Source: Candidatus Thorarchaeota archaeon
GTDB taxonomy: Archaea; Asgardarchaeota; Thorarchaeia; Thorarchaeales; Thorarchaeaceae
Assembly (NCBI GenBank): GCA_003345595.1
Contig: PRDI01000047.1
Location: forward strand, 1-17,926
Reading direction: 5' to 3'
Length of the DNA: 17,926 bases
Shown: positions 37-17,926 of the stretch, in pieces
Position numbering within the stretch: the first letter of the stretch is position 1
How the letters are laid out: each line of letters opens with the position of its first letter
Position numbers and translations under genes: made by a program
The notes under the pieces: model-generated
Told to the model about the DNA's origin: nothing
Seen by the model: only the letters and a program-made list of their open reading frames with translations
Database searches by the model: none

Positions 37-753
37 ATGCAGACGATAGACATGATCGTTCGAGAAACACATGTGGGTCTTTGGTACTTAGTCGTAGGGT
101 ACTACTTCTTCCTCTTCATCTTCCTGTTGTTCTTTCGTTGGCGCAAGACCCGAAACCCATTCCAGCTCGCCATGGCATTATTCTTCCTTCTGCTTGCGGT
201 GGGACGAGTGTTCTACTTCATAGCCGATTTCTATGCTGATCCCACGTCTCTCTATGGTGGGCTTCCTGCATTGGGAATAACGCCTTACTTCGCCGACGGA
301 ACATCGTTCCTCAAGGCAGGTGCGTTCTTTGAGTGGTCGGGACTTGCCATATTGTCTGCGACAGCCGGCTTCATGATATTCGGAAACCGTGTGGCGGAGA
401 TTGCATTTGCGATACCTGCATTGGGAATAGCCATTGTCTTGGGGCTGGTACCCCTAGACCCAGTGGTCAGGATCGGACTCTCAGGAGGAGCAGGGGCAAT
501 ATACGCTCTTTTCATACCTTTGCTGTTTTGGTATCTGGCATGGCAGTCGGGTGGTCTGTTGCGTAGATCGAACTTCCTGCTCGGCCTGGGATTCATGGTG
601 TTATTTGCAGGCCGGGTTGTATCCGCGGGACGGCACTATCTCGCAGATGCCGTATTTGGTTCCTACACGATACCGGGAATTCTTGCCCCAGGTCTGATAG
701 TGATCGGCCTGATACTCATCGCTGTCGGTAACGAGTGGGGTCAGGCTCAGTAG
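37..753 (+). CDS. Seven-transmembrane integral membrane protein of unknown function
   Basis: About 7 hydrophobic segments. ATG at 37 preferred over TTG at 22. No TM7 lysine, so not a rhodopsin. No soluble output domain. Confidence 0.8.
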   Translation: MQTIDMIVRETHVGLWYLVVGYYFFLFIFLLFFRWRKTRNPFQLAMALFFLLLAVGRVFYFIADFYADPTSLYGGLPALGITPYFADGTSFLKAGAFFEWSGLAILSATAGFMIFGNRVAEIAFAIPALGIAIVLGLVPLDPVVRIGLSGGAGAIYALFIPLLFWYLAWQSGGLLRRSNFLLGLGFMVLFAGRVVSAGRHYLADAVFGSYTIPGILAPGLIVIGLILIAVGNEWGQAQ

Positions 754-802: not shown

Positions 803-1444
803 TCAGTGACCTATCTCTTTCCACTCGAGCATCTTCATATCTTCGAGCGTCTGCGTTGCCTTCTGGACGTCCTTGAGTGGCTTGCCTAGCTGGTCTGCAA
901 TCGCCTTGGTCGTGAGCTTTCCTTTGCACATCTGTGCGACCTCAAAGGCATCTTGACTGAGCTGACCTAGCCTCACGAGTATAGGTGAAACCCTCCCCTT
1001 CAACACGGGCACAATGATTCTCTTCTCTGACGCGTGTCCGTCCTTGGTGATTTCATCCAGTCTCTTAACGAACTTCTCAAAGGGTTCAAGGTTGCCGTCC
1101 CAGTCCACCAAGACATCACGATAGGCCGCGACAAACTCGTGATTCACGTCAGAGAGTACAGCCATGGCAGCATTCGTGTCGTCAGTCTTGTCCACCGTGG
1201 CTGTTACAATCACATTGTCCTTCAGAGCCAAGCATATGTCAAACTGTCCGAAATCTATCGTGTGAACACGGTTGCCGTCGCTGAGTTCGCGTCCAAACTG
1301 AATGAGGGCGGTCAGAAAACCACTGATGAGGTTGGGGTCCATGTCCGCAGTACCATACTTCCTGTCGAGGACACAAAGACCGCTGTCAGCAATCAGGATG
1401 TAGACCGCTTGAAGCAACGTAGGTTTCTCCGCTTCTAGACTCAT
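803..1444 (-). CDS. Longin-domain protein with C-terminal winged helix (Asgard-type eukaryotic signature protein)
   Basis: N-terminal AVYILIADSGLCVLDRKY...DPNLISGFLTALIQFGREL...IDFGQFDICL fits the longin beta-beta-alpha-beta pattern. C-terminal EVAQMCKGKLTTKAIADQLGKPLKDVQKATQTLEDMKMLEW fits a wHTH. Confidence 0.8.
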   Translation of the reverse strand: MSLEAEKPTLLQAVYILIADSGLCVLDRKYGTADMDPNLISGFLTALIQFGRELSDGNRVHTIDFGQFDICLALKDNVIVTATVDKTDDTNAAMAVLSDVNHEFVAAYRDVLVDWDGNLEPFEKFVKRLDEITKDGHASEKRIIVPVLKGRVSPILVRLGQLSQDAFEVAQMCKGKLTTKAIADQLGKPLKDVQKATQTLEDMKMLEWKEIGH

Positions 1445-3479: not shown

Positions 3480-3668
3480 GCTGAAGCACTCCCTGACTGG
3501 GTTTGTTTACCGCGAGAAGACCTGATTGTGTTATTATGGGTTTCTACTCTTGATGAATTGAGCTGTAGTTTCCTTCGCTAGGGGCTCGGAACGTTTATCG
3601 GGGGGATTCCTGCCGCTCCTAGCCTACTGCGTTTACCGCCGAAGTCCAGATTGGAGGTTGTCGTAGGA

Positions 3669-5261
3669 TTGACCCGGTCTACCTTCACATTTCAGGAACT
3701 GAAGAGAACAAACCATCAAGAGATAAAGGAGATACAGGACAGAAAGTTCAGGGCCTTCATCAGGTATCAGGTCTGGCCCAATCACCCTTATTATCGCAAG
3801 CTCTTCAAGCAGATGAACATTGACCCATTCAACATAACGTGCATCGAAGACTGGGCGAAGTTCAAGATTCCTCTTGTGAAGAAGGCCGAATACAAGGACA
3901 ATCTCAGGTCCTTCGTACTGAACCCGTCTGAGGTAGATGGAGCAAGTCGACCGCCTGCAGAGATTGTCAGGACTCTGATGACATACTCAAAGGAGACCGG
4001 ACATGACGCCGACTACAGTTTTATCCGAAACAATGGCGTCAAGGTCAAGCTACATGTCGGGTCCAAGGGAGCTATGGACCGACTGAAAGAGCGAATGACT
4101 TACATGTACGCGCCGCTCCAGTTCTGGCTGAGTTCAGGTCGAGCATCAGGTCTTCCATCACCCGTCTTTCTCACGCGATATGATCATGACATGCTGTATC
4201 GGAACTGTGTGAAGGTCGGACAGATGGCAGTTGATCCCTGGGTGCCCAGCGGCTGGGAACTTGTAAGCATGAATCTGTTTCCTTACGCTCCTCACCTCGG
4301 CTGGCATGCGGTCAACCTTGGTCTGAGGCAGATGTCCAAGTTTTATGTAGCCACGAGTGCAGGCGGCGCAATCCCGACTGAGAAGCTTGTCGAACTGGCC
4401 AAAGTCTTCAAGGCCAATGGATTCGCTGGCATGCCAAGTTACTTGAGAAACCGCTTCTTCAAAGCCATGGCTGAGGCAAACTACACTGCGCCTGAGAAAG
4501 TAGTTGTTCTGCTCGCCGGTGAGAAGATCTATGACCGTGTTGTTGGAGACATTGTTCAAATACTAAGTGACAAAGGTGCAAAAGAGGTCCGCGTCATCGG
4601 GGGGTATGCGTCTTCCGAGAGCAAGATATCCTTCGCAGTACAGTGCGACTACAAAGGTCCCTATCACAATGTCAGCCCTCTGGAGATGTCATTCGACTTC
4701 GTGAAGCTCAACAAGGACGGTTCCTACGATTTCGTTGGCGAGAACGAACCTGGACACGTGACTCTCTTCCACTTGGACGGCACTGGCACTATCTTTGAAG
4801 GATTCCTGTTGGGTGATCTTGCATCGCGACATGAAAATGCGAAGTGTTCTATCTGTGGCATGGATGGACCCTTCTTCTGGGACATCGGCCGCGAGAATGA
4901 CGCTGAAGCACAGATTGCTGTAATGGGTCTGGCCGAGAAGAAGGTCAAGGGTGCGACCGTGAATCTGACAGCCCTGAGGACAGACATACTTAGCCTCAGA
5001 GACGTCGAGGAGGTTCAGGTTGAAGTCGCAAAGGAGGACATGAATGATCCGTACAGCATGGATGTACTGAACATGTATGTCGCCCCGCGTGGACCAGTAA
5101 CGGGCAACTATGACTCGTTAGTGTACGAGATCCAGAGGATCACGAAGAATGCTACTGAGATAACTCCGAGAGTCGTGATTACCGCTTTCGAGGATTTGAT
5201 GGAGAAAGCTGGCGGCCTGAAGTTCATGGAGATTGCGGATGTCCGTCCGAAGCCAGCATAG
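3669..5261 (+). CDS. Phenylacetate-CoA ligase (PaaK)-like adenylate-forming enzyme, divergent
   Basis: HPYYRKLF, IPLVKK, SSGRASGLP (P-loop-like), GMPSYL, LLAGEK, GYASSE, LLGD, CSICG, IGRE, KVKG. TTG start at 3669 follows GGAGG; the ORF is open from 3651. Confidence 0.75.
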   Translation: MTRSTFTFQELKRTNHQEIKEIQDRKFRAFIRYQVWPNHPYYRKLFKQMNIDPFNITCIEDWAKFKIPLVKKAEYKDNLRSFVLNPSEVDGASRPPAEIVRTLMTYSKETGHDADYSFIRNNGVKVKLHVGSKGAMDRLKERMTYMYAPLQFWLSSGRASGLPSPVFLTRYDHDMLYRNCVKVGQMAVDPWVPSGWELVSMNLFPYAPHLGWHAVNLGLRQMSKFYVATSAGGAIPTEKLVELAKVFKANGFAGMPSYLRNRFFKAMAEANYTAPEKVVVLLAGEKIYDRVVGDIVQILSDKGAKEVRVIGGYASSESKISFAVQCDYKGPYHNVSPLEMSFDFVKLNKDGSYDFVGENEPGHVTLFHLDGTGTIFEGFLLGDLASRHENAKCSICGMDGPFFWDIGRENDAEAQIAVMGLAEKKVKGATVNLTALRTDILSLRDVEEVQVEVAKEDMNDPYSMDVLNMYVAPRGPVTGNYDSLVYEIQRITKNATEITPRVVITAFEDLMEKAGGLKFMEIADVRPKPA

Positions 5262-6860: not shown

Positions 6861-8228
6861 TCAAGCTTCCGGCTTGCTCTGTTTCCTGAGCTTGTGTTTC
6901 TTGACGAAATCGGTCAGGACATCGAGGAGGTCTGGTTTCCCTATCTCCTGAAGATCATACCTTACTCTGGTGCTTGGCTTGTTGATTTTCAGAAGACGCG
7001 TCAGGTCAATAGGCGTCCCCACAACAATGGCGTCCACGTCTGCTTTGTTAATGGTTTCTTCAAGTTCCTTCATCTGTGCCTTTCCATAGCCCATGGCAGG
7101 CAGTACTTCTCTGAGATGCTTGTACTTCTCGAACGTGGCTTGAATCGTGCCGACAGCGAATGGTCTGGGGTCAACAATCGTGGCACCACACTTGCGTGCG
7201 GCAATGTATGCCGCTCCGTATGGCATGCCACCATGTGTGACAGTTGGACCGTCCTCAATGGCGATGACTCTCTTACCCCGAATCACGGATACATCCCCCA
7301 CACTCAGAGGAGAGGCGGCATCAATAACGATTGCCTTAGGGTTCACTCTCTCTATGTTCGCCCTCACCTTCTCGACGTTTTCATAGTCTGCTGTGTCAAT
7401 CTTGTTTATGATGACAACGTCTGCCATTCTCAGGTTTGTTTCGCCGGGATAGTACGTGACTTCGTGACCTGCTCTATGTGGGTCGGTCACGACAATGAGT
7501 AAGTCGGGCTTGTAGAAGGAGAAGTCGTTGTTTCCACCGTCCCACGTGATGACGTCTGCCTCTTTCTGCGCCATGTCGAGGATCTTGCCGTAGTCGACGC
7601 CTGCGTAAAGAGTCACTCCCGCGCTAATCATCGGCTCATACTCTTCACGTTCCTCAATCGTGCAATTATAGCGGTCCATGTCAGCCAGCGTGGCATACCT
7701 CTGTGCTATCTGTGTTGTCAGATCCGGATCGTAAGGCATGGGGTGTCTGACGTTTACTGGCTTGAAACCCATCTGGACAAGCAGAGTGTTGATCTTCCTG
7801 GATGTCTGGCTCTTCCCGCATCCAGTCCTGACCGCACACACGGCAATAACCGGTTTGTTGCTCTTCAGCATCGTGGTCTTGGGACCCATGATTCTGAAGT
7901 CTGGACCAAGAGAGTTCACCCAAGCAATCTTGTGTCCGACTGTTTCGTAGGGCAGATCGGAGTAGGCTAAAACACACTGATGAACATCAAACTTCTGTAT
8001 GAGTTCTGGCAGCTTATGTTCGGGGTATATCTTGATACCCTTGGGATAGAGCTTCCCTGAGAGCTCTGGGGGATAGATTCTGTCCTCTATGCCGGGTATC
8101 TGCTCCGCAGTGAACGCCACAACCTCGTACTGTTCGTTGTCCCTGAAGAAGACGTTGAAGTTATGGAAATCACGGCCCGCTGCGCCCATGATGATTACCC
8201 TAGTCCTGCTCATTGATTTCGCCGCCAT
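6861..8228 (-). CDS. COG2403 P-loop ligase, arginine synthetase ArcE-like (often annotated as cyclic 2,3-diphosphoglycerate synthetase or GTPase)
   Basis: GAAGRDFHNFN N-terminus, AVRTGCGKSQTSR P-loop, RHPMPY, TIEEREEYEP, WDGGNND, INKID, EDGPTVTHGGM, LPAMGY. GGAGG SD upstream. Confidence 0.85.
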   Translation of the reverse strand: MAAKSMSRTRVIIMGAAGRDFHNFNVFFRDNEQYEVVAFTAEQIPGIEDRIYPPELSGKLYPKGIKIYPEHKLPELIQKFDVHQCVLAYSDLPYETVGHKIAWVNSLGPDFRIMGPKTTMLKSNKPVIAVCAVRTGCGKSQTSRKINTLLVQMGFKPVNVRHPMPYDPDLTTQIAQRYATLADMDRYNCTIEEREEYEPMISAGVTLYAGVDYGKILDMAQKEADVITWDGGNNDFSFYKPDLLIVVTDPHRAGHEVTYYPGETNLRMADVVIINKIDTADYENVEKVRANIERVNPKAIVIDAASPLSVGDVSVIRGKRVIAIEDGPTVTHGGMPYGAAYIAARKCGATIVDPRPFAVGTIQATFEKYKHLREVLPAMGYGKAQMKELEETINKADVDAIVVGTPIDLTRLLKINKPSTRVRYDLQEIGKPDLLDVLTDFVKKHKLRKQSKPEA

Positions 8229-8504: not shown

Positions 8505-9056
8505 TTGAAGCTCGTGGACCTTGCTCAGGAGTCGATACGTCTGCTTGAGGAGTCCGGTGCCCAAGGTATCCGAAGCGATGTTCTGGCTGAGAAGCTCCAG
8601 AGTCCCAAGCGGAGAGTCTACGACATCGTTGCCATCCTCAAGGCTCTGGGCTTCGTATCTACAAAGCGCAGGTCTGACGGCACCACTTTGACATGGGTAG
8701 ACCCTAGGGCCGGTCTGGTTGAGCGTGCTCAGTATGAGGACCTCAAGGCGAATCTTAGCGAAGCAGTAATGACGAAGAACAAGCTCCAAGACCAAGTCGC
8801 AGAGCTGAATGAGCGACTGCGTGTCGCACGAACCAAGATTCGAAAGGAAACCACGACAGTCGAAACTGTTCGTAAGGCAGAGTTCGATACGACTCAACTT
8901 CGGGTTCGGCCTGTATCCAGCTTGGGGTTCAAGAGGGTGACCGACTCAGGCATGGAAGTAGTCATCGAAACTCAGGATCCGGGAATGACAGTAGATCCTT
9001 CAGTTATGGGAGTCGATGAGGCCGAGGCCGTGATCCGTAACTTGGAGCGCGTATAG
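8505..9056 (+). CDS. E2F/DP-family winged-helix transcription factor-like protein with coiled coil
   Basis: LAEKLQSPKRRVYDIVAILKALGFV...LTW matches the E2F/DP RRxYD signature and is followed by a heptad coiled coil. TTG start preceded by GGGGTGA. Confidence 0.75.
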   Translation: MKLVDLAQESIRLLEESGAQGIRSDVLAEKLQSPKRRVYDIVAILKALGFVSTKRRSDGTTLTWVDPRAGLVERAQYEDLKANLSEAVMTKNKLQDQVAELNERLRVARTKIRKETTTVETVRKAEFDTTQLRVRPVSSLGFKRVTDSGMEVVIETQDPGMTVDPSVMGVDEAEAVIRNLERV

Positions 9057-9062
9057 TCTGTT

Positions 9063-9461
9063 TCACTTCCTCGGTCTTGCGTCATGAGCCGCTCGTATTG
9101 TGACCCTTCCACCACGCCTTATCGTGCTCAGCTTTTCGAGGGTTTCATTGTTCGATGTCACCTTGCCAATCAGATTGACCGGCCCGAAGGTGTGCATGTC
9201 TTTCAAGTATACATCGAGCGAGTCTCCCAAGGGGTTGTACGCCAAGTCCCCCCGTTTGACCTCACTAGTGGCCTTGAGATTTCCCTTGGATATGCCAAGG
9301 GTCATCTTCACCTGCCCGGCTACAACCGCCGCTTTCGCAACGATGGGCAATCGGAATTTGATTTCCTCGACAATCAATGGACCCAATACTCTGTCAATAA
9401 CCGCCGTGAGAGTCAGCCCTCCCTCAAACTCAAGCTCAACGTCCAAGGCACTCTCGCTCAT
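9063..9461 (-). CDS. Cyclophilin-like fold protein (DUF369/TM1367-like)
   Basis: RLPI...SEVKRGDLAYNPLGDSLDVY...PVNLIGKV motif. ATG at 9461 preferred. Confidence 0.8.
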   Translation of the reverse strand: MSESALDVELEFEGGLTLTAVIDRVLGPLIVEEIKFRLPIVAKAAVVAGQVKMTLGISKGNLKATSEVKRGDLAYNPLGDSLDVYLKDMHTFGPVNLIGKVTSNNETLEKLSTIRRGGRVTIRAAHDARPRK

Positions 9462-9569
9462 GAGATCACTATGAGGGGATTGCACAAGCACCTTAAAATG
9501 TGCTGCGCTCCGAATATCTGCATAACCTTAATTGCGGCACGACACGAGTGACACACGGAGTGAACTGGG

Positions 9570-10697
9570 CTGCCCGAAACCAACCTAGACATCGCCTTTG
9601 TGGTAGACACAACAGGCTCAATGAAAGACGACATAGTTGCTGTCAGAGACAATCTCTTCAGCATAGTCGACAAGATAGTGGCACGGACTTCAGGGCTCCG
9701 AATCAGATTCGGGGTTGTGTCCTATCGTGATCATCCACCGCAAGACCATACCTACGTGACACGTGTGTTTGACTTCAGCAGCAAGATCAAGGTAGTGCAT
9801 AAGGAGATATCAGATCTGAACCCTTCCGAAGGTGGGGACACGCCTGAGGCGGTTGCTGACGGTCTGTATGATGCTCGAACAAAACTCTCATGGGAGAAGA
9901 GCTCATACAAGGTCCTTCTTCTAGTGGGGGATGCACCCCCTCATGGAAGAGACTATAACTCACTCGCCGATGACTACTTCCCAAATGGATGTCCAGATGG
10001 ACATGACCCCAAGATAGAGGTCCAAGAGCTGAAGAAGGCGTACGGCAACACAGTTTTCATATTCGTGTGTGGATGCAATCCTCTGGTCGAACCATCTTTC
10101 AGAAGTATAGCAGAGTCTGTGGAAGACGGAAAGTACTATTCGTTGCTGAACGCACCTGAGCTGCCCGACGCGATTCTACGTATACTCGAAGGAGTGAGTG
10201 ACCTCATTGAGGAGGACCGCCGTGTCCTTGCCTACTACGCCTCGCACGATGGTTCCTTTGACTTGGTCGAGGCAGCAACTGAGCTGTCCGTGGCCCTCAG
10301 AGAGCTGAAGACATCATTATCAAGACTGATGGAGCTCGGGCGCATACCTGCGTGGCCGAAGGGTCGACCACTCGCTCCGTCTCAACTAGGTCTATCGGTG
10401 GAACTGGGTGAAGTGCCGAGCGCCCTGTTGCCCGGGAAGGCCTTCAACTACAGGATCAGAGTGAAGAATCCAAGTCCCGCGACCGCAAGTGTCAGGGTTG
10501 TTGTAACACTGGTGACATCCGAAGGAATCTCAGAGGTCGCTAACGAGTCAAGGGAGGTTGGTCCGAAGTCAGATCAACAGATTGAGTTGAAGCTAACACC
10601 AATGTCAGATGTGAAAGAGAAAGCTAGCGTCAGAGTAGAGGTCCTTTATGGGTCCAAGTCAATGGCCACCAGGATCTACGAAACGCGTATCTATTGA
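9570..10697 (+). CDS. vWA-domain protein with intact MIDAS, followed by a winged helix and an Ig-like C-terminal domain
   Basis: LDIAFVVDTTGSM, GVVSYRDH, GGDTPEA, LVGDAPPHG; then FDLVEAATELSVALRELKTSLSRLMELGRI (wHTH); then beta-rich YRIRVKNP...GPKSDQQIELKL. Start inferred at CTG 9570 (in-frame TGA at 9561, GGAGTGA upstream). Confidence 0.8.
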   Translation: MPETNLDIAFVVDTTGSMKDDIVAVRDNLFSIVDKIVARTSGLRIRFGVVSYRDHPPQDHTYVTRVFDFSSKIKVVHKEISDLNPSEGGDTPEAVADGLYDARTKLSWEKSSYKVLLLVGDAPPHGRDYNSLADDYFPNGCPDGHDPKIEVQELKKAYGNTVFIFVCGCNPLVEPSFRSIAESVEDGKYYSLLNAPELPDAILRILEGVSDLIEEDRRVLAYYASHDGSFDLVEAATELSVALRELKTSLSRLMELGRIPAWPKGRPLAPSQLGLSVELGEVPSALLPGKAFNYRIRVKNPSPATASVRVVVTLVTSEGISEVANESREVGPKSDQQIELKLTPMSDVKEKASVRVEVLYGSKSMATRIYETRIY

Positions 10698-10710
10698 GGA
10701 GTGGCTGGCA

Positions 10711-11601
10711 TTGAAGATCAGAGCAATGCGTGGGGGCGACCAGAAGGGGATTTCCTTTCTGAGCCCTTCATCGGGGGCGTCCCTTCTAGGAAACACAGTG
10801 AAGGTCTCATACGCGAACCGGTCCTTGCTCAGTGACATTCGAGCTTCCAAGAGCGTTCCCGAGGAGACAATAGTGCTCGATTCACGGCTCTTTGATGATC
10901 TTCGTCTTGAGGGTGAATCCGAGGTAGAGGTCGAAAAGGTCAATGAGCGTTTGCCGTTTTGTGAAGAGGTTGAGTTGGTGTATTGGGTGTTGGACAGGGT
11001 CGCTTCTGGGATATCGATGCGCTCAGAGGACTTCCGAGCATTCCTCGACGGCCGCATTCTGAAGACCGGTCAGAAATTCGTGCTCCCGGAGCGCGGGGTC
11101 ACGTTTAGGGTTGAACGACTTCGTCCGACCGCTGCTTCAACGCAGGCCGCTCGAGTGGGACGGAAACGGCCTCCTCGAATCGAGGTCCGTTCCGGTGAAG
11201 AAGATCGGTTGTTTCCTGCTCGAGACAAGAGTACCGTGCTTTCTTCTCTTGCCAGCACGGAAGTGCCTGAGAGTGTTGCTGAGGAGAAGGCTGACACTGC
11301 GGATAACCTGTTGCGCCGCTTGGCGGAGGTGAGCCGGGAGCTGGATGAAATCGAGACTCTTGACCTTCAGAGAAGGATTGAAAACCTCGAAGGCCGCATG
11401 TCCTCGTTGACAGGAACAGAGGGAACAGCGGCTTCGGAAACAAGCACTGGACTACGGGACCTGCCAGTTGTCTCCGGAGCACCGTCCAAGAATCTCTATG
11501 TTCGACTTAAAGAGGTAGTTGACCGCCTTGAGTCGCTGTCATCCAGACTGGAGGATTTGGAGCGCCGAATTGAAACTCTAGCTGAGAGGAAGAAGAGGTA
11601 G
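10711..11601 (+). CDS. CDC48/p97 N-domain-like protein with C-terminal coiled coils, no ATPase domain
   Basis: TTG start after GAGGAG gives MKIRAMRGGDQKGISFL, which parallels MKLEIVDGGDLKGYANL of the 16305 protein. ETIVLDSRLFDDLRLEGESEVEV and LDGRILKTGQKF...FRVERLRP are CDC48_N/CDC48_2-like. Two C-terminal heptad segments. Confidence 0.7.
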   Translation: MKIRAMRGGDQKGISFLSPSSGASLLGNTVKVSYANRSLLSDIRASKSVPEETIVLDSRLFDDLRLEGESEVEVEKVNERLPFCEEVELVYWVLDRVASGISMRSEDFRAFLDGRILKTGQKFVLPERGVTFRVERLRPTAASTQAARVGRKRPPRIEVRSGEEDRLFPARDKSTVLSSLASTEVPESVAEEKADTADNLLRRLAEVSRELDEIETLDLQRRIENLEGRMSSLTGTEGTAASETSTGLRDLPVVSGAPSKNLYVRLKEVVDRLESLSSRLEDLERRIETLAERKKR

Positions 11602-11608
11602 GTGTCAT

Positions 11609-11902
11609 ATGCCCTCTAGTGACGAAACACTGCCGGCAATAGTCGAGAGAGCCGAGGAAGTCCTCATAGTCCTCCGGAGTCTGCCTGCCAGAGTCAAGAG
11701 CCTAGAAGAACGACTTGGCATCCTGAATTCGCTGGAAAGGATTCCTCCGCAATCAGGTGTGGACAACAAAAGCCAAGTCGATCGGCCGGGTGTCGAGCAA
11801 ACCGCAAGCCTCTTGGGATTGCTCAGGGGTATGATTGACAGACTAGAACTTGAAACGGAAGCATTGGAGTTGCGGGTCAAGGCACTCGAAGTCAGCGTGT
11901 AA
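11609..11902 (+). CDS. Small protein with two coiled-coil segments
   Basis: Heptads LPARVKSLEERL and LRGMIDRLELETEALELRVKALE. Starts 7 nt after the upstream stop, with GAGGTAGGTG upstream. Confidence 0.7.
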   Translation: MPSSDETLPAIVERAEEVLIVLRSLPARVKSLEERLGILNSLERIPPQSGVDNKSQVDRPGVEQTASLLGLLRGMIDRLELETEALELRVKALEVSV

Positions 11903-11912
11903 CGACTCACGA

Positions 11913-14546
11913 CTACCGGGGTAGGAGTTTCCGTATTGCCGAAAGAAGGTAATCATCGAAGACCTGTGCAGAGAATGACCTGACCGGCACTATGCTGCCA
12001 TTGACGGACCTGAGAAGTCTGCGGGCCTCTCTGTCATCGAAGCCCTCACCAACTCCCAATAAGTCCAGCCGATATCTTTCGTGATCAGAGATGGCCTTAA
12101 GGAAGGGTGCGCTTTCTTCCTCTTGGCCACCCAGTTTGCTTCCTATCAGAACTACCAGTGTTGGTCTGTCTTTGCCGAAGTCTTCAAGAAGCTCTGCTAT
12201 CGAGCGGTAAGCAACAGACACATTGAGTCTTCCACCAACGTCTCGCGCAGCATCGAAGATAGACAACAGAAGTGAGGTCATGACCTCGTGAGATGGCAGG
12301 TCTTCGGCGAATTCGGCCGAAGCTTGGACTGAGTTGCCTTTCTGAATACAGTACTTGTGAGCCTGTTCGGAAACCACAACAAACCCGAGGTGTCCTTCAG
12401 TGCGGTTCACAGCCATCTGACTGATAGTCAGCAAGGAAACTAGCGCGGCCAGTTGTGCCCTCGTGATCTGTGCTTCCAAGCCAGAGAGAAACTCCGTAAG
12501 GTCGGGCATGTTGTCCATGAGTGAGGATAGCCTTCTCCGAACCGAGGCATCCGTTGACAGATTGACATCCTTCACTGCCATACTCTGATCCATGAGCAAA
12601 CACAGTATTACATTGATTTCCTCGAATGCTTCAGCCGGTCTGAAAACCAGTCCTTCGGAAGGGGCCTCACCAAGCTGTCCCGAACTCAACTCTGGTTCTG
12701 TCCGGACCAGATTCATTGTGAACCTCTGTCCTTGTTCTCCGAGGTACAACCTTGTGCCGAAGCCGAATGCACGGCCCGCGAGTGTCTTCTTAATGGAGTC
12801 TTCGTGAAGGTGTATATGCGAGGAAAGCTCCCCGCTCGTCCAAGGGTCTATTGCTTCGTAAGCGAAGATCATCTCTCGTAGATCTGCTACGTGGCCCTCA
12901 TACTTCACTAGGTCGACTGCAGCAGAGCTGTCCAGTCCGACAAGCTGCGCGTCTGGACGCGAAACCATGACTCTCCGAAGCGCTGCATCGCCTTCTGCTG
13001 CTCGTGCTGACCACCACTGGCCGCTGCCGCCTTCTAGGGCAAGAACTGTTTCGCCGTCCGAAACCCCCAAGGCCCTCATATCGTCAGATGAGATCATCAT
13101 GACACCGGGTTTGGTTTCTCGGATATCTACCGCAAAGTGGAGCCCAGATAGAATCTCTTGGGGGTTCCTGACTTGCAGACACTTGAGCACAGAAAGATCG
13201 AACTGGTTCAGGTGAGCCGGTGAATCCAGCACAGGGCCTGAAGAGTTTGTTGATGCCCTGACGAGAGTCGCGTATATGTCGTTCTTCCTTGAGCTGAGGC
13301 TCTCGGCGAATGTGCGCTTCCAGCCGGACACCCTAAGTGTCCCATCCCGCTCCACCAAGACAGCAAGGCTGGTTGCGGCCTTAGCTGATGACTCTCCCAG
13401 CGTCACCACCGCACTGCTCGCGCTGACCGAGCCTTCGTTTGACAGCATGTGGTCGACAGACAGGATATTCTGTCTTCCCTTTGTGCCCAGAAGCATGAGA
13501 ACCCTAGCCAATTCCTTCAGACATAGTCTTCCAAACTGCCCCTCGGATATGACAGTATCATCGTTGTCGACATAGCTCAGGAATGAGGGTCTTGGGGGAA
13601 GAATGGAGAGTAGATTGGTGCCCAGTATTCTCTGCAGGTCCTCCGGAGAAGCGGCCAAGTTCCTACTGAACAGGTAGCTGAGAATTTCCGAGATGCTCTC
13701 CCCTTCGTGTGTTTCGGGATAGGCGCTTGCAAACACGAGTCTAGTGGACCATGACGAATTCTGACCGTTCTTACGAAGATCGGATATGATTGCAGTAAGA
13801 GACGATATGGTTGCTCCACAGGTAAGCAGTCTTGTGTTAGGGATTTCCAGTAGCTGCGTTATCTTGGATCCCCATGTGCTGTGACTCCTGACAGCGAAGA
13901 ATAGGTTGGGACTACTTAGGCCGGTGTCCCTCAGGCCAATCAGCCATCTGAGGAGGGCGTCAGTGTCGTCAGGAGTGTTCAATTCCATGAACAAGGGCAG
14001 ACCGGATTTGATGTATTTCAGGACATCAGAACCGTTCATTCCTCTCATGATGTCCTGCAAATCGGCAGTCGTCAAGGCGCAGCCCCAACCTGGGTTGCTT
14101 CTTCGGCCATTGCGCATGTCTTGAATATGATACAGTCTTGGACTGTACGGCAGTGCGAGTGACCATCTTTGAGTGAGTTCGGAATTCCTGCCCTGCTGTG
14201 AGTCAGGGAGTGATCTTCCTGCAACTGCGATCAGGGGCCTGGCAAAGAACATGTCTACCAGCCAGCTTGCCATCGAAGGATCGAGAGTGCTGGCGCAGAG
14301 CTCGCTCAGGATTACCGGTTTCTTGAGATAGTCGTACACTCTGCGGGGGAGATACCTGAAAGCCCCCGGGTATTGAGTGGCCAAGTCGTGCAGGTGGTCC
14401 TCAACCATCGCAAAGTATGAAAGTGCTCTTCCCGGGTCGAAGACACGGACTTGTGTTCCAGCCTTGACAATGCCTAGCTGGAGCATCGCGTCCACAACGA
14501 AGAACTGCCTGATTTCGTTGCTCGCCGTGTCTTCAACCACTATCAT
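11913..14546 (-). CDS. Large multidomain protein: degenerate amidohydrolase barrel + accessory domain + CDC48-N-like domain + degenerate vWA
   Basis: Colinear similarity to both the 14713 and 16305 proteins, with metal ligands lost. ATG at 14546 follows GGAG and aligns with the start of the 14713 protein; the ORF is open from 14591. Confidence 0.75.
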   Translation of the reverse strand: MIVVEDTASNEIRQFFVVDAMLQLGIVKAGTQVRVFDPGRALSYFAMVEDHLHDLATQYPGAFRYLPRRVYDYLKKPVILSELCASTLDPSMASWLVDMFFARPLIAVAGRSLPDSQQGRNSELTQRWSLALPYSPRLYHIQDMRNGRRSNPGWGCALTTADLQDIMRGMNGSDVLKYIKSGLPLFMELNTPDDTDALLRWLIGLRDTGLSSPNLFFAVRSHSTWGSKITQLLEIPNTRLLTCGATISSLTAIISDLRKNGQNSSWSTRLVFASAYPETHEGESISEILSYLFSRNLAASPEDLQRILGTNLLSILPPRPSFLSYVDNDDTVISEGQFGRLCLKELARVLMLLGTKGRQNILSVDHMLSNEGSVSASSAVVTLGESSAKAATSLAVLVERDGTLRVSGWKRTFAESLSSRKNDIYATLVRASTNSSGPVLDSPAHLNQFDLSVLKCLQVRNPQEILSGLHFAVDIRETKPGVMMISSDDMRALGVSDGETVLALEGGSGQWWSARAAEGDAALRRVMVSRPDAQLVGLDSSAAVDLVKYEGHVADLREMIFAYEAIDPWTSGELSSHIHLHEDSIKKTLAGRAFGFGTRLYLGEQGQRFTMNLVRTEPELSSGQLGEAPSEGLVFRPAEAFEEINVILCLLMDQSMAVKDVNLSTDASVRRRLSSLMDNMPDLTEFLSGLEAQITRAQLAALVSLLTISQMAVNRTEGHLGFVVVSEQAHKYCIQKGNSVQASAEFAEDLPSHEVMTSLLLSIFDAARDVGGRLNVSVAYRSIAELLEDFGKDRPTLVVLIGSKLGGQEEESAPFLKAISDHERYRLDLLGVGEGFDDREARRLLRSVNGSIVPVRSFSAQVFDDYLLSAIRKLLPR

Positions 14547-14712
14547 TGCATCATACTCCGCAAAGGCGGCTGTCGTGGACCAACACACCAATCGATATAT
14601 CCATAGTGCAAATGGACATTATGTCGTGTCACTGACTTGAACTCGTCAGTTGACTGGCATGAGATGGTTTATCACGAGTCGGTACACCCTAGTCTGACGG
14701 AGAAGGACCCAG

Positions 14713-16227
14713 ATGCTAGTTGTCCGAGCTGTGGAAGATCAGCCGTCCCGAGGAATAAGAAGAGGTGACGTCTTCCGCATTTACTTAGTCGATGCACATC
14801 ATCACATGGGTCGCGAAGGCAGTCACAGAAACACTCCTCCAGGTGCCTATTCATATTATGCTCTACTGTGGTTTGAGCTTCGACGCATGGCCAAGGATCA
14901 ATTGGAGAAGGACAGTCTCCTTTTCGAGCCGATACGAGTGGAACCTCCGAGTCTGCCTTGGAAGTGTTTCAGCTTGAGGGACAGCTGGGAGCGAATGAAC
15001 AACGGCTGGCTAGTCGACAGGACGATAGTCTTCCCTTACTCCGATGACTACGCCAAATCAAGCGATCGCACGACTGCTTCGTTTAGACTCTCAAACGACA
15101 AGATAGCAGGTTGGACAACACATGCACCTAACTCAACGAGGCTCATCGGCTTCGCTCGAGTTGACCCTACGGATGGCAAGACCAAGAGCCCAGACGCCGC
15201 TGTCAACGAGCTGAATAGGGCGGTGAATAATCTGGGTTTGCGCGGCCTCAAGCTCCATCCTCTAGCCCAGCTATTCGTAGATGACATTCAGGACGACATC
15301 ACCAAGCGGGTGGTGGTCCGAGCAGGAGAACTCCGGATTCCAGTCATATTCGACACAAGGAACATTCGGACTGCAAGGAAGATCAAAGCTCTGGTTGATG
15401 ACATACGTTCTGATGACTCGTACGCTGATGCTCTGCGCGGCATGCGCATCATCCTCGGCCACTCCGCTATGAGTCCCGGCGATTCACTTCTTCACGAGAT
15501 TATAAGGGATCCATTGATTCACGCGGAAACGTCGGGCTTGCACGGTCAAGACATCCCCGTGTTGTTCAAGACAGCCCAGGAGCGAGTAGGAACAACTAGG
15601 GGTTCGTGGTCTGAGAAGATACTCTTTGGGACTGATTATAGCTTCCTCTCCATGCAGGCCGCGGAAGTGATACTATATCTCCTCTCGAAGTCGTTCTCAG
15701 GGACACTCGCTGACATCCAGCGCATTCTAGGGGGTAACGCTCTCTCGCTTGTGCAGAAACCGTTCACAACAGACGGTCCGAGCGGAGAAGCTCCCAGACA
15801 AGTTGTATTCAACGACGAGGATCATCGAGGTCTCGAAACTCTCGAGTCTCTTATACTGAATCTTGTCCGGAACAGGCAGTGGGACGTTGCGTCATTTGAC
15901 TTCATGATACCGCCCAGAGGAACTTGGCCCGATGTGAGACCACACCCAACCGGCGGTTTCAGTGGCGTCTACGACAACTCCTACATTATCACACTTGTTG
16001 CGAACAAAGGAGCACGTGAGGTTCACATCTGGGTGCGGCAGCAGTCTGGCAAGACCTCGACCTGCGCAATCGTAGGTTCAAGAGCCCAGCACACTCTAGA
16101 CACCACTGAGTTAGCGTTTCAGAGGGTAGATCCCTTCCTGCTCAGTACCTTGGCCGAACACAGCGTCCAGATTGAATCTGCGGACAGGATACAATCAGTG
16201 CTTCTGAGGCTGCTCGAAGTGCCATAG
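14713..16227 (+). CDS. Amidohydrolase-family (Amidohydro_2-like) metallohydrolase with C-terminal extension
   Basis: VDAHHHMG (HxH), RLIGFARVDP, LGLRGLKLHP, IILGHS, KILFGTDY, RILGGNA, plus an extra C-terminal domain of about 155 aa. Confidence 0.85.
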   Translation: MLVVRAVEDQPSRGIRRGDVFRIYLVDAHHHMGREGSHRNTPPGAYSYYALLWFELRRMAKDQLEKDSLLFEPIRVEPPSLPWKCFSLRDSWERMNNGWLVDRTIVFPYSDDYAKSSDRTTASFRLSNDKIAGWTTHAPNSTRLIGFARVDPTDGKTKSPDAAVNELNRAVNNLGLRGLKLHPLAQLFVDDIQDDITKRVVVRAGELRIPVIFDTRNIRTARKIKALVDDIRSDDSYADALRGMRIILGHSAMSPGDSLLHEIIRDPLIHAETSGLHGQDIPVLFKTAQERVGTTRGSWSEKILFGTDYSFLSMQAAEVILYLLSKSFSGTLADIQRILGGNALSLVQKPFTTDGPSGEAPRQVVFNDEDHRGLETLESLILNLVRNRQWDVASFDFMIPPRGTWPDVRPHPTGGFSGVYDNSYIITLVANKGAREVHIWVRQQSGKTSTCAIVGSRAQHTLDTTELAFQRVDPFLLSTLAEHSVQIESADRIQSVLLRLLEVP

Positions 16228-16239
16228 CGCGTGAAATCG

Positions 16240-16246
16240 TTTATAT
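16240..16246 (+). promoter_or_regulatory. Putative BRE/TATA promoter for the CDC48N-vWA gene
   Basis: GTGAAATCG-TTTATAT in the 16228-16304 gap, with GGAGG downstream. Confidence 0.5.
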
Positions 16247-16304
16247 CAACTCGGTCAGACGGAATCCTACTGCTCTCTCGGAGGAATACACCATTACAAA
16301 GAAG

Positions 16305-17582
16305 ATGAAGCTTGAGATCGTGGATGGAGGCGATCTCAAAGGTTATGCAAATCTGAACCCGAAGACTGCCGATACACTAAAGGCAGAGATGGGTTCTATT
16401 GTTCTATTTGAGGATCCTCAGAGCAGTTTCTGGGGGGCAGCTGAAGTCCGCAAGAGCGCAGAGGTCCTGCAGGACAAGATAGTAGTTGACAGCCTTGTAC
16501 TAGAGGCTTCCCTGCTAATGGAGGGCGACATGGTCGAGGTAACGCTCTATGATCAACCGATGATCGCGCTTGAGTATGTAGAGTTCGGTCTGAAGCCCTT
16601 GGCCGAGGGAGCAAACACAGAAGACCTGGTCCCAAGAGCAGCAGAGAAGGTTCACCTTCTGGAGAAGATGATTGGCGGCCGCCTCGTATATCCGGGCATG
16701 TCTTTCAACTGGCCTGAACTTGAAGTGAAAGTCGAGATAATGAATACGCGCCCTGCGCTCACTGGCAAGAGCTTTGCGAAGCTTGCCTTTGAGGCACTAA
16801 GGGACAAGACTGGTTACCAGTTTAAGACGGTGGGAATATCCACTCCTTTCAATGCAATCTTATGTATTGACACAAGTGGGTCGATGAAGACTAATGATGT
16901 GCCAGTCAAGGATGTGGCGCATGCACGAGAGGGTCTCAAAGACCTTGCGGGTGACAACCCTGATGTTCAGGCCTTTCTCGACAGGTTCGAAGAGGGATCC
17001 AATGTGAGCCGGGGTGAAGCAGCTGCTATGGCCGTGCTGCTCTACCTAGCAGAGAAGGTCGGCCGTGGATACGGGGAGAAGGTTGCTGTGATCACTTTCG
17101 AGAAGGAAGTGAGCGAGATGACTTTCATGGATCCCGAGTCTGGAGATGTGAGACCCTATGTGGAATGCACGGGCAAGGACAAGGCCTTGGGCCTCCAGAT
17201 AATAAGCACACATGTCATCGACAAGGTGGAAGAGGGTGGCACTCTGACTGACATGGGTTCAGCCCTCATCAAAGCAAGCGAAACACTGGATGCCTTTGGA
17301 GACCCCAAGAAGCCCACAATGCTGATTCTTCTCACTGATGGGATGACGACGTCCGGACCTCCTCCTCTCAAGGTCCTGAAGGAGAAGTTCCCGGATAGGA
17401 GAAGACTTGTGATGTACTGTATCGGTCTCGGCGAGCGCAGTGAAATCGATGAGGAACTCATGCTTGCCATGGCACAGTACGGCAACGGCACGTACCGCCA
17501 CGTTGACAATATGCGGGATCTGCTTGAGTGGTACGGCCGGCTTGCAAGTGAGTTTGCTGTGGTTATACGGGGAGCACAGTGA
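16305..17582 (+). CDS. CDC48-N-like domain + vWA-domain protein (intact MIDAS)
   Basis: N-terminal KGYANLNPKTADTL...KIVVDSLVLEASLLMEGDMVEV (double-psi barrel-like). vWA motifs ILCIDTSGSM, VAVITF, TLTDMGSAL, LILLTDG, YCIGLG, GNGTYRHV. Confidence 0.85.
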   Translation: MKLEIVDGGDLKGYANLNPKTADTLKAEMGSIVLFEDPQSSFWGAAEVRKSAEVLQDKIVVDSLVLEASLLMEGDMVEVTLYDQPMIALEYVEFGLKPLAEGANTEDLVPRAAEKVHLLEKMIGGRLVYPGMSFNWPELEVKVEIMNTRPALTGKSFAKLAFEALRDKTGYQFKTVGISTPFNAILCIDTSGSMKTNDVPVKDVAHAREGLKDLAGDNPDVQAFLDRFEEGSNVSRGEAAAMAVLLYLAEKVGRGYGEKVAVITFEKEVSEMTFMDPESGDVRPYVECTGKDKALGLQIISTHVIDKVEEGGTLTDMGSALIKASETLDAFGDPKKPTMLILLTDGMTTSGPPPLKVLKEKFPDRRRLVMYCIGLGERSEIDEELMLAMAQYGNGTYRHVDNMRDLLEWYGRLASEFAVVIRGAQ

Positions 17583-17585
17583 AAG

Positions 17586-17924
17586 CTACTCCCGTGGCTT
17601 CAGTGCGTCTATCAGTCCTTTGAGCGTTTCCAAGTCCATCTCACGAATCTGTTCAGCAGGAAGACCCTGAATCATCTCGGTTGGAACCATCACCAGCAGA
17701 TCAGCCTTTGCCTGACCATACTGTGTGGAGTATTCCTCCCAACGTGGATCAGACCTTCCAGTCTTGACTTCTGGCGCAGCAGCCCGACCCGATGATGGTC
17801 TCTTTGCGGTAGCCTTCGGAGGCATCTCTTCTCCTGCCTCGGGTTCTGCTTCATGCTCCTCGGCGGAGGCACCGACTAGAGCTTCCAGTTCATCAGTACT
17901 CAAACTATCAAGTATCTCTGGCGT
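17586..17924 (-). CDS. C-terminal part of a hypothetical protein; the gene runs off the window edge
   Basis: The frame stays open to the window end (..TPEILDSLSTDELEAL..). Acidic/Ala/Pro-rich linker followed by a short helical domain. Convergent with the vWA gene. Confidence 0.65.
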   Translation of the reverse strand, partial: TPEILDSLSTDELEALVGASAEEHEAEPEAGEEMPPKATAKRPSSGRAAAPEVKTGRSDPRWEEYSTQYGQAKADLLVMVPTEMIQGLPAEQIREMDLETLKGLIDALKPRE

Positions 17925-17926
17925 GA

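Follow-up and report, generated by a model that had tools for sequence, protein, structure and literature searches.

The window analysed here is the whole of contig C47 (PRDI01000047.1; 17,926 bases) from a Candidatus Thorarchaeota metagenome-assembled genome (MAG) of 2.73 Mb that is 83% complete. Positions 9570–17926 hold seven genes, labelled A–G, among which von Willebrand factor A (vWA) domains and domains resembling the N-terminal domain of Cdc48/p97 (Cdc48-N) recur. Two of these genes, E (a predicted metal-dependent hydrolase) and F (a Cdc48N-vWA protein), form a core together with an ATP-dependent carboxylate-amine ligase of the GCS2 type (glutamate-cysteine-ligase family 2), and this core is conserved across at least seven Asgard families. 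Gene D is a fusion that lines up end to end with E and then with F, and is predicted to have lost both metal sites. The seven genes are as follows.

9570–10697, plus strand: gene A, a vWA domain with a metal ion-dependent adhesion site (MIDAS; DTTGS...T...D), a helical linker and an Ig-like beta-sandwich tail
10711–11601, plus strand: gene B, a Cdc48-N-like domain with a coiled coil at the C-terminus
11609–11902, plus strand: gene C, 97 residues with a C-terminal coiled coil
11913–14546, minus strand: gene D, an 877-residue fusion, predicted to be catalytically dead
14713–16227, plus strand: gene E, an Amidohydro_2 metal-dependent hydrolase with a C-terminal domain of ~150 residues in common with D
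16305–17582, plus strand: gene F, a Cdc48/p97-N-type domain (16305–16829) and a vWA domain with an intact MIDAS (16833–17579)
17586–17926, minus strand: gene G (partial), the last 112 residues of a HEAT-repeat protein of ~497 residues, cut by the contig end

Neighbourhoods were compared in 40 fetched loci from nine GTDB families (given here as f-numbers), with all open reading frames (ORFs) clustered; within Thorarchaeia the loci compared cover five genera, together with one genome of a sister family (G112). F was surveyed in 201 sampled Asgard genomes, and the Pfam tallies for its family cover 44 members. Structures of F and D were predicted with AlphaFold2 (AF2), and folds were searched with Foldseek and by rigid-body alignment with VIA.

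The initial annotation, made from the letters of the window, had placed vWA domains in A, D and F, and these are confirmed by Pfam matches for A and F and by a VIA Z-score of 19.0 for D. The three Cdc48-N-like domains that it had assigned to B, D and F are likewise confirmed by BLASTP, profile and Foldseek comparisons, and the domain ranges found in D agree almost exactly with the positions it gave. Heptad windows are present in both B and C, where it had seen coiled coils, and a regular-expression search finds no Walker A or B pattern in any of the six proteins A–F. In NCBIfam the matches of F are all sub-threshold, and A, D, E and the longin protein encoded at 803–1444 have no family there.

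Within the set F is the best conserved protein, with 77–98% identity across the Thorarchaeia genera compared, and is present in 105 of the 201 Asgard genomes. Its AF2 model (predicted local distance difference test, pLDDT, 86.8; predicted TM-score, pTM, 0.60) shows a two-lobed N-terminal domain predicted to consist of a double-psi beta-barrel and a beta-clam, and fits the p97-N fold, as had been expected of this domain (a double-psi barrel plus a second lobe). Residues 1–175 match p97 N-domain chains in Foldseek with target TM-scores of 0.72–0.76 and root-mean-square deviations (rmsd) of 3.2–3.9 over ~182 columns, and the N-domain of Afg2 matches over residues 10–147. Of the 44 family members, 24 match Pfam CDC48_N (PF02359), the best with E 1.6e-9; the copy encoded in the window matches it weakly (E 0.18). 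The N-domain of F is thus a true Cdc48-N homologue. It shares the fold of the N-domains of Cdc48/p97/VAT and Afg2/SPATA5 and of Ufd1 UT3 but, unlike that of the Cdc48/p97-type AAA+ ATPases, it is not fused to D1 and D2 rings and is followed instead by the vWA domain.

The vWA domain of F (Pfam VWA_2, E 5.5e-7) aligns at residues 177–425 with canonical vWA domains at Z ~21, and the MIDAS residues D189, S191, S193, T315 and D345 are at least 90% conserved. An insertion of ~40 residues (a hairpin plus helices, residues ~195–235) follows the MIDAS loop. The fold (Z ~19–21) and the DxSxS...T...D motif are shared with BatB, ANTXR2, ITIH, alpha2delta, TFIIH p44 and ArnB, from which F differs in its preceding Cdc48-N domain, in being cytoplasmic, and in having no AAA+ or kinase/FHA partner nearby. 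In Lokiarchaeia-type family f9, and once in f24, F is ~720–765 residues long and carries an extra N-terminal Cdc48-N-like region.

Gene E matches Pfam PF04909 with an E-value of 5.9e-13 (49.7 bits against a cut-off of 26.4), although its sequence is highly divergent (best PDB sequence E-value 0.005). D27, H29, H31, K180, H182, H250 and D308 are invariant in 25 orthologues and, because these are the active-site residues, E is very likely a working metal enzyme. It retains the metal ligands of the Amidohydro_2 enzymes (PDB 3cjp, 4dlf, 3nur, 4inf and the gamma-resorcylate decarboxylase 3s4t), on which the barrel of D superposes with Z 15–16.6. Differences from these enzymes are the extra C-terminal domain of ~150 residues, the obligate genomic partner F and the fused, dead paralogue D.

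Gene D starts at Met16, giving the 877 residues of 11913–14546, and its AF2 model has a pLDDT of 88.4 and a pTM of 0.83. All four of its parts lie on the minus strand:

residues 15–318, window 13593–14504, minus strand: Amidohydro_2-type TIM barrel (VIA 3cjp, Z 16.6, rmsd 3.1, 217 aligned; 4dlf, Z 16.2)
residues ~331–460, minus strand: alpha/beta domain
residues ~470–640, window ~12630–13140, minus strand: Cdc48-N-like domain, from profile and Foldseek matches
residues 642–877, window 11916–12623, minus strand: vWA domain with a degenerate MIDAS (VIA 4fx5, Z 19.0, rmsd 2.5, 183 aligned)

No part of D matches Pfam. The profile of its family matches double-psi beta-barrel designs (E 2.4e-4) and, at 477–619, the N domain of TER94 (E 0.22), and the N-like domain matches the 55LCC N domain with a target TM-score of 0.63 in Foldseek. 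BLASTP aligns D 265–411 with E 298–442 (E 1e-7) and the C-terminal half of D with F (E 2e-9), and on these sequence matches the internal paralogy of D with E and F is beyond chance. In the consensus of 29 D orthologues the HxH motif, the barrel Asp and DxSxS are all absent, and no member of the family retains the two metal sites. Because these metal-site motifs are missing from the consensus while an intact frame is retained, D is, as read from its sequence, a conserved double pseudoenzyme that has lost both metal sites, and so a natural case of one retained beside its active parents. D is intact at ~850–910 residues in 38 of 43 sampled f1 genomes and is also found in f2, f7 and f19. Its family is small, with 57 matches among 1.8 billion representatives. 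In the same-genus genome G155 (L037, G155:C3:773000-792999) the frame of D is interrupted by four internal stops, and frameshifts divide both A and the CobW-like gene. All three lie on a single long contig, and errors in the sequence seem a better explanation than loss of the genes.

The genes flanking the A–G block on its left include the following:

803–1444, minus strand: longin plus winged-helix-like protein, 213 residues (Pfam Longin, E 0.007)
3651–5261, plus strand: PaaK/F390-synthetase-like adenylate-forming enzyme, 536 residues (NCBIfam FlxY, E 1.3e-11; PaaK, E 1.6e-6)
6861–8228, minus strand: CobW/HypB/UreG partial match, 455 residues (E 1.3e-6; P-loop VRTGCGKS)
8505–9056, plus strand: E2F/DP-type winged-helix protein with a coiled coil (E2F_TDP, E 4.3e-9)
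9063–9491, minus strand: cyclophilin-like protein (E 2.9e-7)

The order CobW-like GTPase, E2F-like, cyclophilin-like, A, (B, C), D, E, F and HEAT is kept in five Thorarchaeia genera and is mostly retained in the sister-family genome, so that the genes stand together in related genomes rather than being scattered. Over longer distances the constant elements are fewer. In f1, f2, f6, f7 and f19, E immediately precedes F and is read in the same direction; in f7 and f19 there are two or three paralogous E-F pairs per genome, and f22 has E, the ligase and F in that order, all on one strand. The third constant partner is a protein of 1,000–1,400 residues with a GCS2 core, usually convergent with F. 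ORF clustering finds it no more than a few kb from E and/or F at 22 of the 40 loci, from six families, and tblastn adds f27. In Thorarchaeia the ligase lies ~6 kb past F; in the same-genus genome G124 it is at L035:9903-13346 (1,147 residues, with a CARDB-like stretch). In the genome analysed here its first 90 codons are found at the end of contig C87 (C87:24459-24728), and contigs C47 and C87 are probably neighbours. Relatives of the PaaK-like enzyme recur beside the E-F-ligase sets of f19 and f27.

Several lines of evidence bear on a physical association of E with F. Co-folding of the two gave weak support, with a score of 0.59, the best of three controls scoring 0.00, and with runs agreeing in at least 85% of contacts and a partner pLDDT of at least 78. 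Of 80 solved complexes, 58 pass the mark applied, as do 2 of 110 mismatched pairs. The higher pTM of D (0.83 against 0.60 for F alone) suggests, at the level of the models, that the E-like part fixes the F-like domains. Because the fusion D recapitulates both proteins without their metal sites, the two active proteins E and F can be expected to work together. Taken with the gene adjacency, the fusion, the model of D and the co-folding make E-F binding likely.

Such an association is the starting point of the interpretation that we tentatively prefer, at a little below even confidence: an undescribed, Asgard-wide module in which E and F form a complex, the ligase and hydrolase run an amide cycle, recognition falls to F, and D is a twin without catalytic activity. 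E and F would act as a complex in which F recognises the target, its Cdc48-N groove taking a peptide or small domain and its MIDAS metal an acidic residue or carboxylate, and delivers an amide-linked substrate to E, which hydrolyses it. The amide bond itself would be made by the ligase, and the trio would then constitute a cycle of writing, erasing and recognition. A protein or peptide would be a likelier substrate than a free metabolite. D may be a single-chain copy of E plus F that serves as a non-catalytic scaffold, decoy or regulator, holding the same partners without turnover, and A, B and C may be lineage-specific accessory subunits that add further vWA, Cdc48-N and coiled-coil parts. 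No AAA+ unfoldase would belong to the system. The initial annotation had proposed one multiprotein complex with the amidohydrolase as its enzymatic arm. The parts that stand are a conserved multiprotein system with a hydrolase arm, and E as a true partner of F, given their adjacency in distant families and the fusion D; a complex of six subunits was an overstatement, A, B and C being variable between genera.

In pupylation, PafA and Dop are a carboxylate-amine ligase and a depupylase of the same fold. By analogy the proposed module would resemble that system in combining an ATP-dependent GCS/GS-type ligase, an amide hydrolase and a recognition factor. It differs in that E is a TIM-barrel amidohydrolase, that the ligase is 1,000–1,400 residues long with only its GCS2 core recognised by Pfam, and that no Pup-like tag or proteasomal ATPase was found nearby. 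A search for tag proteins upstream of E in f7 and f19 yielded proteins of ~90–116 residues (cluster c17) with neither a GG or Pup-like C-terminus nor a Pfam match. The literature searched on Asgard vWA and DEPDC5/GATOR1-type proteins contained no description of the gene set, the only relevant report being that of NPRL2-like longins. A Cdc48-N domain without an ATPase, joined to a metal-binding vWA domain and tied to a hydrolase, a giant ligase and a dead twin, presents a testable and undescribed enzyme-adaptor system.

Several observations weigh against this interpretation. The co-folding pass falls in a weak band, scores of 0.60 or below including only 7 of the 80 solved complexes together with both of the mismatched pairs that passed. 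No substrate, tag protein or modification site was identified. In Lokiarchaeia (f9) F has no adjacent E or ligase and carries the extra N-domain, and because E and the ligase are missing from its neighbourhood there, F can function in other contexts; some F paralogues of f7 and f19 similarly lack both E and the ligase and adjoin an alcohol-dehydrogenase-like gene. The linkage of A, B and C may be merely inherited block synteny within one family. Finally, characterised Amidohydro_2 enzymes act mostly on small molecules, as decarboxylases, lactonases and hydratases, which favours a metabolic role.

In such a role the ligase and hydrolase would make and break a small-molecule amide, and F would be a metal-delivery or assembly factor for the hydrolase, comparable to the vWA proteins of the CoxE, NorD or chelatase systems. 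We regard this as unlikely, although it has several points in its favour: characterised GCS2 enzymes, too, use small molecules, the MIDAS of F is intact, the Thorarchaeia block includes a CobW/HypB-like GTPase gene (6861–8228), and a ligase of the ANL type recurs nearby. However, known vWA maturation factors act together with an AAA+ partner, which is missing here, the fetched loci outside Thorarchaeia yielded no CobW-like gene, and the Cdc48-N domain and a dead twin that retains the whole fold point to protein-protein recognition.

The partner that the initial annotation had proposed for these proteins was an AAA+ ATPase: the vWA and Cdc48-N proteins would be adaptors that bring in a CDC48 or MoxR protein from another locus, and the amidohydrolase would be the enzymatic arm. 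vWA proteins frequently partner MoxR AAA+ ATPases, and Rpn10 is a vWA subunit of the proteasome. A bona fide CDC48 gene is present on each of contigs C7 and C112 of the genome, and the homology of the F N-domain to Cdc48-N also fits. Recruitment of an ATPase is nevertheless not borne out by the neighbourhoods. The 40 loci of nine families contain no AAA+ gene in the vicinity of E, F or D, and none of MoxR type adjoins a vWA gene in the window, in those loci or in the region downstream of the G124 cluster. Nor was an ATPase domain found in longer relatives; the Lokiarchaeia forms of F, ~750 residues long, are extended at the N-terminus only. AAA/CDC48 or ubiquitin-system genes, which had been looked for past base 17926, are absent from the 14 kb beyond in G124, where the genes encode the HEAT-repeat protein, an Rce1-like protease, NfeD, SPFH/Band 7, an ECF-like protein, DUF92, the GCS2 ligase and ABC transporters. 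In Cdc48 itself the ligands of the N-domain are cofactors and substrates, not the ATPase ring, so an N-domain that stands alone is no indication that an ATPase is recruited. We therefore consider adaptors of this kind very improbable.

A different resemblance emerges when both domains of F are compared together. The top Foldseek matches of F are DEPDC5/Iml1 chains (E 2.8e-13 to 1.6e-11, ~430 columns, covering both domains), and those of D are DEPDC5/Iml1 (Sea1) chains as well (E 2.7e-11, 430–575 columns). In DEPDC5/Iml1 (Sea1; GATOR1/SEACIT) a Cdc48/NSF-N-type domain is likewise followed directly by a vWA/Sec23-trunk-like domain, with no ATPase; the N-terminal domain (NTD) of DEPDC5 is NSF-N-like and its SABA domain Sec23-trunk-like (PMC8534245). 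F differs in its intact MIDAS and in having a hydrolase and a ligase as conserved partners rather than longin GAP subunits. The p97 N-D1 fragment, moreover, matches F nearly equally well (E 2.3e-11), and much of the signal thus comes from the N-domain. VIA on the whole F model listed vWA domains only, giving no ranking of DEPDC5 among two-domain proteins. A six-frame search at E≤10 finds no match to Pfam IML1 (PF12257) in the genome, nor does that family feature in the 25 tallies listed for the 44 F members at the same threshold, and no DEPDC5/Iml1 chain appears among the PDB profile matches listed for the F family (best 60 of 92) or the D family. The SHEN, DEP and C-terminal domains are absent from F, which ends with the vWA domain at residue 425. 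Because p97 N-D1 is a near-equal match, IML1 is unmatched and these three domains are missing, the evidence for DEPDC5 stops at architecture, and F is classed here as a protein of DEPDC5-like architecture rather than as a member of the DEPDC5 family.

This likeness raises the possibility that F and D are archaeal relatives of the NTD-SABA half of DEPDC5/Iml1 which scaffold longin or roadblock GTPase regulators such as the protein of 803–1444. That gene, encoding a longin and a winged helix-turn-helix domain, is 67–96% identical across most Thorarchaeia genera sampled (50–52% in one genus) and lies 6–20 kb from D in 18 Thorarchaeia genomes. NPRL2-like longin proteins are reported from most Thorarchaeota MAGs (bioRxiv 10.1101/2020.10.19.343400), and 803–1444 probably belongs to this family. 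In f19 both a longin homologue and a weak HTH_NPRL3 match (E 6e-4) are found within 6 kb of D. In seven f9/f24 loci (e.g. L050:8030-8422, L051:7843-8235 and L053:7778-8170) a 130-residue Roadblock/LC7 gene and a family-less protein of ~280 residues directly precede F, which in the f9 loci is followed by actin and a CHAT-like gene. However, the linkage of the longin gene in Thorarchaeia is that of the whole syntenic block, the many longin and roadblock genes of Asgard genomes make chance adjacency likely, and the strongest conserved neighbours are enzymes rather than GTPase regulators. Rigid alignment, in addition, puts the vWA domain of F closest to the canonical MIDAS vWAs. A GATOR1-like scaffold is accordingly improbable in our estimation.

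No known organisms are more closely related to eukaryotes than the Asgard archaea, whose conserved uncharacterised proteins are searched for precursors of eukaryotic machinery. If the DEPDC5/Iml1 fold match does reflect descent, the archaeal roots of GATOR1/TORC1 nutrient sensing would reach past the longin subunits. At the speculative end, and with very little weight placed on it, F and D could be surviving relatives of an ancestor of DEPDC5 NTD-SABA that was originally the recognition subunit of a protein amide write/erase system alongside NPRL2-like longins, in which case part of the GATOR1 scaffold would predate eukaryotes.

The remaining genes of the cluster, A, B and C, have a narrower distribution. 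Among the loci examined they belong to Thorarchaeia, with A also in the sister-family genome, and they vary between genera. Gene A matches Pfam VWA_4 (E 8.3e-10) and VWA (E 9e-6), and its Ig-like tail gives weak ASH, Transglut_C and DUF11 matches. An in-frame TGA at 9561 and the first vWA strand (beta1), which needs a start before GTG 9600, bound the start between them; no ATG, GTG or TTG start preserves that strand, and CTG 9570 is therefore the probable start. The layout in G124 is identical. An ArnB/Sec23-like identity for A was considered and rejected, phmmer against PDB giving only marginal integrin-beta matches (E≥0.046). Orthologues of A adjoin the cluster with 63–95% identity in five Thorarchaeia genera and 47% in G112.

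Gene B starts at TTG 10711 behind GAGGAG, and its N-terminal ~150 residues match the N-domain of F (BLASTP E 2e-7). Its coiled coil is seen as heptad windows at residues 280–317 of the long ORF, with an HSBP1-like match (E 1.4e-5). In other Thorarchaeia genera the same slot is taken by a full N-domain plus vWA protein (L040:2223-3452, L039:16268-17437) together with a separate coiled-coil protein of ~390 residues and a coiled-coil ORF of ~96 residues, and B is a derived form. Gene C, with heptad windows at residues 62–97 and no Pfam match, has a 72% identical copy in G124, and in G103 a 96-residue coiled-coil ORF occupies its slot. Neither B nor C was detected in G155. A coiled-coil protein of ~180 residues lies directly upstream of E in one paralogous set of f19 (L044:818-1351, L056:1259-1822 and L057:5627-6178) and recalls genes B and C of the window.

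These distributions also fit a looser arrangement in which only D, E and F, with the ligase, are functionally tied, while A, B and C are neighbours by descent that have domains in common through local duplication. Consistent with this, A is restricted to f1 and f2 among the loci examined, the architecture of B switches between genera (N-domain plus vWA against N-domain plus coiled coil) and B and C were not detected in G155, and the E2F-like, cyclophilin-like and CobW-like flanks are equally syntenic. Two observations run the other way: A adjoins the cluster at 47–70% identity in diverged genera where D is only 22–44% identical, and coiled-coil proteins (cluster c44) also accompany an E-F-ligase set in f19. 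On balance this arrangement is rather unlikely, but it deserves more weight than the metabolic, adaptor or GATOR1-like alternatives.

Among the flanking genes, the E2F-like and cyclophilin-like genes are syntenic with the cluster in five Thorarchaeia genera and in G112. The CobW-like protein is conserved like F, with 79–98% identity across Thorarchaeia genera, and its P-loop is non-canonical. SPFH/Band 7 genes are found near the system twice, in Thorarchaeia with NfeD between F and the ligase (L035:15610-17200) and in f19 directly upstream of D (L043:5350-6354); this proximity may be coincidence. Gene G, which is convergent with F, is 91% identical to the end of L035:18093-19586 (HEAT_2, E 2.5e-22), and the HEAT gene downstream of F is retained in five Thorarchaeia genera.

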